This document shows positions 7,118-7,412 of a stretch of DNA of 64,000 nt, piece by piece. Each line of letters begins with the position of its first letter. Position 1 is the first letter of the stretch. Source of the stretch: an uncultured Clostridia bacterium (GTDB lineage Bacteria > Bacillota > Clostridia > UBA1381); contig CAKSGG010000004.1 in assembly GCA_934454215.1 (NCBI GenBank), positions 16,885-80,884 of the forward strand, written 5' to 3'. The position numbers and the translations under genes were made by a program. The notes under the pieces were generated by a model, which saw nothing but the letters and a program-made list of their open reading frames with translations, searched no databases and had not been told where the DNA came from.

Positions 7118-7141
7118 ACCACATAATCGATATTATGTGGT
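7118..7141. repeat. Inverted repeat L (lox/FRT-like site: 10-bp arms with an asymmetric core)
   Basis: ACCACATAAT-CGAT-ATTATGTGGT. On the minus strand it is followed by a T-rich tract, so it would terminate leftward transcription. Confidence 0.65.
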
Positions 7142-7176
7142 AAATAAATTTATTATACATAACTTTTCTGCGTATT

Positions 7177-7205
7177 ATTATAACACCAAAAAGGAATTTT
7201 GTCAA
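7177..7205 (-). promoter_or_regulatory. Consensus sigma-A promoter on the minus strand
   Basis: The reverse complement reads TTGACA-17 nt-TGtTATAAT, i.e. perfect -35, perfect -10 and an extended -10. Confidence 0.7.
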
Positions 7206-7388
7206 TGATTTGCGAAAAATTTAATTGTATTTGTCGAAAATCGTTAATTTCAACAAAAAAAGAGCAGCAAAACCGGACCATTGAAATTTTGAGCATTTCT
7301 ATGGTCTAAAAGTCGTGGGTTTTTGATGTGTTTTAATGTTGTGCATAATGACAGAATCAAAAATAATCACCCTTTATTAAGTTCTCAC

Positions 7389-7412
7389 ACCACATAATAT
7401 CGATTATGTGGT
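7389..7412. repeat. Inverted repeat R (exact reverse complement of IR-L)
   Basis: ACCACATAAT-ATCG-ATTATGTGGT. It matches IR-L 24/24 when inverted, but only 20/24 when compared directly. Confidence 0.65.

Follow-up and report, generated by a model that had tools for sequence, protein, structure and literature searches.

A predicted invertible promoter with lox-like sites, next to a tyrosine recombinase gene and ahead of a kinase/secretion operon in an uncultured Clostridia bacterium

Phase variation by promoter inversion is, to our knowledge, well worked out in Bacteroides, Escherichia coli and Clostridioides difficile and hardly at all in the Clostridia that dominate the gut. The locus described here lies in a 64,000-nucleotide stretch of contig CAKSGG010000004.1 from an uncultured Clostridia bacterium (the window, whose positions are used throughout). 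It consists of a 247-bp segment with a consensus promoter, enclosed by two inverted 24-bp sites and situated between a gene for a tyrosine recombinase and an operon encoding a TetR-family regulator, a kinase and an EssC-like ATPase. The locus is interpreted as a site-specific inversion switch, with the recombinase flipping a promoter that would be OFF as sequenced and would turn the cargo operon ON once inverted. This reading is given a probability of roughly 80%.

With regard to the sites, the closest described systems are Cre/loxP and FLP/FRT. These are likewise built from palindromic arms with a short asymmetric spacer between them, which is the sole determinant of polarity; any spacer is functional if the partners match, and inverted sites lead to inversion. 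loxP has the layout 13 + 8 + 13, whereas the sites of the window have 10-bp arms and a 4-nt variable core (the overlap itself is taken to be at least 6 bp, as discussed below). Unlike Cre and Flp, the protein here is Xer-like, the role is that of a promoter switch and the spacer diversity is natural, amounting to 49 classes.

In its layout the locus resembles fimS of E. coli (FimB/FimE), where a recombinase gene is found directly upstream of an invertible, promoter-bearing element of ~300 bp, which is followed by the operon (fimE-fimS-fimA). The recombinase transcript of the window probably runs into the switch, and the orientation of the segment could feed back on that transcript. fimS has 9-bp inverted repeats (IRs) with non-identical flanking half-sites and requires IHF and Lrp; in contrast, the sites here are perfect 24-bp palindromes with a core, they double as terminator-like hairpins and there is a single recombinase.

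The RecV switches of C. difficile (cwpV, flgB, cmrRST, pdcB) are also tyrosine-recombinase inversions of a Firmicute, with segments of 150-300 bp and surface or signalling operons as their targets, and the mechanism of cwpV includes orientation-dependent terminators. A preliminary description of the window had drawn a parallel with RecV at cwpV and flgB. This is apt for function and not for layout, as RecV is one recombinase encoded away from many dissimilar targets, whereas here an adjacent, dedicated recombinase is associated with strictly conserved arms. The invertible promoters of Bacteroides (Mpi; Tsr) are comparable in serving surface phase variation of gut commensals and in often having a locus-linked tyrosine recombinase. 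However, they differ in phylum, promoter type and IR motifs, and no sites with palindromic arms and a free core were described for Bacteroides in the literature searched.

The hCom2 survey (PMC11892184, Microbiome 2025) contains, in the parts of it that were available, an inverton group 139 (invertase group 35) of 33 invertons (32 Clostridia, 17 strains), nearly all of which adjoin a gene annotated 'tyrosine-type recombinase/integrase'. These parts also give an IR of 26 nt with 205 nt between the repeats in Clostridium sp. D5 (inverton at 3525576-3525832), a distance of 227 nt between them in Intestinimonas, and read-level flipping observed in culture (PMC11892184). Taxa, geometry and recombinase annotation agree with the site family to which the window belongs, and the homologues of its recombinase share the PGAP product name. 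The family is probably inverton group 139, the likeness being one of description. In the same parts of the survey there is no account of arm, core and covariation anatomy, of terminator logic or of a link to a conjugative element or EssC-like operon. A full-text literature search for the arm sequence returned no microbial paper, and DeepInverton and the other inverton literature found do not describe the site. The principle of the switch is known; the locus is a well-defined addition to the class of invertible promoters, from a very widespread and barely described Clostridial family.

The features of the switch as sequenced are the following:

6268-7107, plus strand: Xer-like tyrosine recombinase of 279 amino acids (aa), the presumed invertase of the switch
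7108-7117, minus strand: predicted U-tract for leftward transcripts, the plus-strand A-run AAATAAAAAT just outside IR-L
7118-7141: IR-L, the recombinase-proximal site, ACCACATAATCGATATTATGTGGT (10-bp arm, CGAT core, 10-bp arm)
7142-7388: predicted invertible segment of 247 bp, bounded by IR-L and IR-R
7156-7160, minus strand: ATGTA motif in the predicted transcribed leader, 14 nt from the site
7205->7177, minus strand: sigma-70-type consensus promoter TTGACA-17-TGtTATAAT, pointing to the recombinase end (predicted OFF)
7382-7430, plus strand: predicted intrinsic terminator with a 17-bp stem, one mismatch, then TTATTTTTTTT; current orientation only
7389-7412: IR-R, the cargo-proximal site, ACCACATAATATCGATTATGTGGT (core ATCG)

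IR-L and IR-R are exact reverse complements (24/24) lying 247 nt apart, and thus form the inverted repeats around a short segment by which an inverton is recognised. No further copy with up to 3 mismatches is present in the 64-kb window, and none was obtained in 100 dinucleotide-preserving shuffles. Within each site one 10-bp arm is the reverse complement of the other, with CGAT or ATCG between them, and IR-L and IR-R are 83% identical when read as direct repeats. As the arms are mutually palindromic, the core alone sets the polarity of a site. The promoter matches the consensus at 12/12 positions, possesses the additional TG and is placed 35 nt from IR-L, an asymmetric position within the segment at the level of sequence. 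Perfect TTGACA-N17-TATAAT occurs twice in the 64 kb where 0.01 would be expected, and both copies sit within IR-flanked segments, the second one (5505-5533) being part of a neighbouring 'first switch' described further below. The recombinase open reading frame stops 10 nt before IR-L. Exact 24-nt reverse-complement sites with asymmetric cores, a textbook extended promoter on the minus strand and a tyrosine recombinase ending just before IR-L had all been proposed in the preliminary description, and all were borne out. In an Rfam scan of 5300-7600, nothing but sub-threshold RsaJ noise was obtained.

A scan for ACCACATAAT-NNNN-ATTATGTGGT over species-representative genomes showed that the sites belong to a family present in at least 120 genomes, in which the arms are invariant and the core is free (family counts here and below are among the matches listed; loci are given handles such as L049 where they have to be told apart). 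Carriers include Lachnospiraceae, Oscillospiraceae, Ruminococcus, Blautia, Faecalicatena, C. symbiosum and others, as well as a few Gastranaerophilales bins. At 96/120 loci a recombinase homologue (41-77% aa identity) ends just before the site, the gap commonly being 1-30 nt. Second sites, sought with up to 4 mismatches at a distance of 100-1200 nt, were usually spaced 165-300 nt from the first. Partner sites are inverted, and in 93/94 pairs one core is the exact reverse complement of the other. Nevertheless, the cores of the different loci fall into 49 classes, with palindromic cores in 0/93 where ~6 would be expected. Palindromic arms around an asymmetric, matching spacer constitute a lox/FRT-type architecture. 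The strand-exchange region of a tyrosine recombinase is not read by the protein, its partners must match, and its asymmetry gives inversion alone; a core that varies freely between loci, matches between partners and is asymmetric therefore behaves as expected of such a region. The inner segment is barely conserved across the family except for the promoter, and no Rfam family matches it.

A near-consensus promoter is found in 73/80 two-site loci (window included), with at least 10/12 and mostly 11-12/12 matches, a 17-nt spacing, often a TG, and an AT-rich region upstream. It faces the recombinase in 55 loci and the downstream cargo in 18. The distance from the end of the -10 element to the site is bimodal, at 22-27 or 32-38 nt; these two modes are about one helical turn apart.

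Inversion is also seen between homologous loci of the family. Two metagenome-assembled genomes (MAGs; L049 and L072) have flanks that are 97-100% identical, while the 301 bp from site to site are 99.7% identical on the opposite strand. Loci L057 and L106 are homologous in both flanks and have an inner segment that is 76% identical and inverted, and the segment is likewise inverted between the homologous loci L001 and L008. With collinear flanks and an opposite segment in three locus pairs, inversion at exactly these sites therefore occurs naturally. In contig coordinates, 14 contig ends lie within 60 nt of a site where 1.4 would be expected, and 24 lie within 300 nt where 6.8 would be expected; this excess would fit assembler breaks at mixed orientations or repeated sites.

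The first gene past the distal site, compared for 50 family loci and the window, encodes a TetR-family regulator in 10 cases. Elsewhere its product typically belongs to the cell surface or envelope, with collagen-repeat, SLH, SpaA, cohesin/dockerin, BspA-type leucine-rich repeat and pectate-lyase-like adhesin domains, and further ones are Wzy_C, CpsB/CapC, acyltransferase_3, NusG and EAL. This cargo is of the usual kind for phase-variable promoters.

Both sites of the window also resemble terminators. Read on the minus strand, IR-L gives a terminator-like hairpin with TTTTTATTTT after it and a folding energy of -15.1 kcal/mol (z = -3.6); the leftward terminator RNA would read UACCACAUAAU-AUCG-AUUAUGUGGUA-UUUUUAUUUU. 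An A-run (at least 6/9 A) is present outside the proximal site in 50/78 family loci, as against 0-4/78 at the other three flanks. Because such a run supplies an opposite-strand hairpin with its U-tract, the proximal site has the signature of a one-way terminator, and the idea of a terminator blocking the promoter in the OFF state, already put forward in the preliminary description, is strengthened accordingly by the family. That description did not mention IR-R as a terminator, although as sequenced it would form a strong one on the plus strand. Its stem spans 7382-7419 and comprises IR-R plus 7 inner nt (7382-7388) paired with 7 outer nt (7413-7419). The calculated folding energy rises from -23.4 kcal/mol in the sequenced state to -14.1 kcal/mol after an in-silico flip, a weakening which arises because the inner partner of the stem extension moves away. 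In L139 the mismatch in the extended IR-R stem is repaired. A terminator that exists solely in the OFF state is thus predicted at the level of this locus.

On the promoter side, ATGTA occurs in the last 40 nt before the site at 40/68 loci, compared to 2-9 in control windows, with a peak 13-14 nt from the site. The motif (ATGTA/TATGTA) is similar to the arm's inner portion (ATTATGT), and it may be an accessory half-site.

In the proposed mechanism, the 6268-7107 recombinase would bind the 10-bp arms of both 24-bp sites and exchange strands across an asymmetric overlap that measures 6 bp or more and is made up of the 4-nt core and a base on each side. Since the sites are mutually inverted, recombination would flip the 247-bp segment. 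In the predicted OFF state, as sequenced, the leftward transcript would be stopped after ~55 nt at the IR-L hairpin and its U-tract, and this termination would shield the recombinase gene from antisense transcription. On the other side of the segment, IR-R and its flanks would form the strong plus-strand terminator and so insulate the cargo. Following the flip to the ON state, the promoter would face right at ~35 nt from IR-R, the stem extension would be lost and the junction would read ...GAAAATAAAAAT-site-GTGAGAACTT. Transcription would then enter the TetR-kinase-FHA-PP2C-EssC-like operon (7499-18969) and potentially raise its expression, atop the operon's TetR-controlled weak promoter. As the operon has this weak promoter of its own, the switch would add to or override that control and would not be the sole source of transcription. 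The geometry given in the preliminary description, with a flipped promoter directed toward the TetR, kinase and type VII secretion system (T7SS) genes, is retained.

The window's own lineage was sampled in 29 other assemblies whose recombinase and switch are the same as, or nearly identical to, those of the window (inner identity 91-100%). ERZ27287071, ERR7738557, ERR912160 and SRR26886994 are among the samples in which the element is present. Three alleles are present, and in each of them IR-L and IR-R are exact reverse complements. CGAT/ATCG is found in 17 assemblies and the window, while CAAT/ATTG, a double change in the core, is found in L129. In the remaining 11 assemblies the allele is ACCACATAAC-CGAT... 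with ...ATCG-GTTATGTGGT, a double change of the base flanking the core, in which the palindrome within the site is broken and the identity between the sites is kept. The matched region must therefore extend over at least 6 bp, and overlap regions of tyrosine recombinases are 6-8 bp. Paired changes of this kind would be the expected product of a strand-exchange heteroduplex or of selection for recombination; read from the sequence, this argues that the window's lineage is or recently was active.

A number of results weigh against the inversion switch. The flipped state was seen in none of the 29 other assemblies, so that 30/30 including the window have the same orientation, and the exact flipped left junction gave 0 matches in Joint Genome Institute (JGI) metagenome contigs, among which there is one contig of the element. 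Consensus assemblies cannot reveal minority orientations, and the assembly look-up merges places with the same neighbouring genes, so that a flipped copy might have gone unnoticed. Across the family, no significant trend was found for the distal terminator to be lost upon inversion (24 vs 17 loci, p = 0.06). Furthermore, the flipped promoter would still be separated from the TetR gene by a 10-bp hairpin that has a U-run 7 nt after it, and this residual hairpin could attenuate transcription. Because all 30 copies share one orientation, the ON state, like any influence of it on the operon, is a prediction. The lox-like invertible switch of the preliminary description is thus upheld for the family as a whole (matching cores in 93/94 pairs, both promoter orientations, natural inversions), but its flipped state is unseen in the window's own lineage.

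The uniform orientation and the high inner identity would also be compatible with a former switch that has become locked OFF in this lineage, its promoter yielding a short terminated RNA and no meaningful inversion taking place; the operon also has a promoter and a putative operator of its own. However, the recombinase is intact and each of the two sites is perfect, the two independent compensatory double substitutions would be difficult to account for if strand exchange, or selection for it, had ceased, and the OFF-like orientation is about three times commoner across the family anyway. A locked switch is considered improbable.

The recombinase of the window possesses a PF00589 domain (1e-28) and a PF02899 SAM-like N-domain. 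Alignment with XerD and XerC-like structures shows the catalytic residues R137, K161, H224, R227, H250 and Y259, which correspond to the R-K-H-R-H/W-Y set of tyrosine recombinases. Its closest PDB structures are XerC-like, XerD and XerA, and its NCBIfam equivalog scores fall short of the cut-offs for XerA (142/220 bits), XerD (128/330) and XerC (115/335). Assignment as a XerC/XerD/XerA dimer resolvase was rejected because the scores are below all cut-offs and the partner sites are inverted pairs, not single dif-like or direct sites. Under the inversion reading, this enzyme is presumed to catalyse the flipping of the segment.

A different role for an Xer-like protein would be to act on attachment, resolution or cassette-exchange sites of a mobile element (dif/cer-like or integron-like), so that the promoter cassette is moved and not flipped. 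The conjugative element that carries the locus, with its VirD4/TraG and RepA_N genes, would suit this, as would the extra tandem same-core sites at some loci. Yet partner sites 100-1200 nt apart are inverted and never direct (93/94), which implies inversion and not excision or resolution, and the palindromic cores that would permit deletion are absent. Many family members are on long chromosomal contigs near surface-protein genes, and the Xer equivalog scores are far under their cut-offs, making this explanation very unlikely. It is scarcely credible that the hairpins are ordinary or duplicated terminators around a small-RNA gene, with an unrelated recombinase and no inversion: both are indeed terminator-like with T-runs, one per strand, and the leftward transcript would be a ~55-nt hairpin RNA, but the loops are reverse-complementary in 93/94 loci yet variable between loci, which terminators do not need, the arms are invariant across Clostridia families and tied to the recombinase gene, the segment is inverted between near-identical genomes, and the sequence between the sites shows neither an Rfam match nor conservation.

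The wider recombinase family comprises about 8000 or more clusters at E <= 1e-30. On the Pusillibacter faecalis plasmid pMM59_01 (L130, 4831-5138), a recombinase with 50% aa identity to that of the window is associated with a different IR (GACAAAAACAACATTTCG; AGACAAAAACAACATTTCGT / ACGAAATGTTGTTTTTGTCT), the copies of which are ~270 nt apart and upstream of an SLH-domain gene. It probably represents a sister family of switches that has another site specificity. As the P. faecalis homologue uses a different IR, the wider recombinase family has several site specificities.

Some loci of the site family show additional features. Extra same-core sites in direct orientation (11/12 cases) lie 8-78 nt from a member of the pair at 11 loci (L039, L047, L050, L052, L058, L068, L084, L092, L106 and L115 being such loci, L039 with two per side); they may serve as alternative crossover points or be left over from duplications. 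In L053 and L071, the stretch immediately internal to the proximal site is the reverse complement of 11-12 nt directly beyond the distal site, giving a repeat that is longer and offset relative to the rest of the family. Three Gastranaerophilales MAGs (L020, L066, L073) carry the Clostridial site, and the L020 recombinase is 70% identical to that of the window; either cross-phylum horizontal transfer or mis-binned contigs would account for these occurrences. Where two loci are present in the same MAG, their cores differ in 6/8 pairs and are the same in 2/8. This difference was dismissed as a sign of selection, being expected by chance given 49 classes. Locus L109, considered as a flipped copy of L086, was found to be a paralogue.

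The surroundings of the switch are as follows:

37-1923: VirD4/TraG coupling protein (Pfam), a conjugative-element gene upstream of the switch
1916-2959: RepA_N (Pfam), an upstream conjugative-element gene
Upstream: DUF5697 (Pfam), a conjugative-element gene
4701-5414: small serine recombinase, with the 'first switch' directly after it
5633-6175: YpsA/SLOG protein, upstream of the tyrosine recombinase
7439-7468, plus strand: the operon's own weak promoter TTGTAA-18-TAGAAT (9/12 match), between IR-R and the TetR start
7438-7477, plus strand: three TTGTAAC/GTTACAA repeats overlapping the weak promoter, a putative TetR operator read off the sequence
7499-8095, plus strand: TetR-family gene (Pfam), the first cargo gene
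7499-18969, plus strand: cargo operon encoding TetR, a Ser/Thr kinase with Big_2, an unknown protein, a surface protein, an FHA protein, a PP2C phosphatase and an EssC-like ATPase
14437-18969, plus strand: EssC-like FtsK/FHA ATPase of 1510 aa (FtsK_SpoIIIE 4e-47, FHA 9e-22)

The cargo genes are co-directional on the plus strand with intergenic gaps of at most 40 nt. Downstream of the switch, on the plus strand to 24 kb, there is no promoter with a match of at least 11/12 and no excess of terminators. The TTGTAAC/GTTACAA repeats suggest an autoregulated TetR operator. At nine family loci, a T-run after the distal site coincides with TetR-first cargo. The 14437-18969 gene product has the EssC-type FtsK/SpoIIIE ATPase with FHA that typifies type VIIb systems, and several of the proteins neighbouring it have no Pfam match. 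The 'T7SS island' of the preliminary description can be kept insofar as an EssC-like FtsK/FHA ATPase occurs with an FHA protein, a kinase and a PP2C phosphatase, these being the genes to which the label refers. A megablast of 4700-8100 against the PLSDB plasmids gave no match.

The 'first switch' has IR arms of 27 nt at 5423-5449 and 5572-5598, which are 89% identical and enclose 122 nt. It also has a hairpin (5413-5452) and a promoter (5533->5505) that points back at the serine recombinase. This arrangement is kept in the same orientation in a Ruminococcus MAG (L041), whose serine recombinase has 76% aa identity to that of the window. Two contigs of the window's element (L125 and L127) start inside the 122-bp segment, at positions 55 and 68, and these starts may be assembly breaks due to mixed orientation of the first switch. 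In sister elements (L131-L148, 560-930) the serine-recombinase switch is mostly replaced by a second tyrosine-family switch, with a recombinase of 281 aa and cores CAAC/GTTG, located before the YpsA gene. These elements have two switches 1.5 kb apart with the same arms and different cores (CAAC, CGAT), and the distal site of the second switch has an 18-bp extended stem followed by ATTTTT. Two repeats were set aside. A 28-nt inverted repeat with 82% identity (6156-6183 / 7219-7246) brackets the recombinase gene, with one arm inside the predicted invertible segment, and is probably due to chance in AT-rich DNA; the 12-13-nt words common to 5937-5964 and 7257-7319 were likewise put down to chance in AT-rich DNA.

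With clear site rules, namely fixed 10-bp arms and a free overlap of 4-6 nt, new members of the family can be found from sequence without the need for reads. The family also provides a natural set of matched site pairs and possible recombinase tools for Clostridia. It is tentatively suggested, as a possibility held with some doubt, that the recombinase, the two lox-like terminator sites and the consensus promoter form a portable, self-contained cassette for phase variation, in which the drifting overlap would act as a private address that stops cross-recombination between copies sharing a genome, and which here would subject a T7SS-like kinase/secretion operon, borne by a conjugative element, to stochastic ON/OFF control. 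If this is true, recipients of the conjugative element would inherit phase variation along with the cargo, and the bistable secretion/kinase operon would bear on how mobile elements limit the cost of their cargo or its visibility to immunity and phages.

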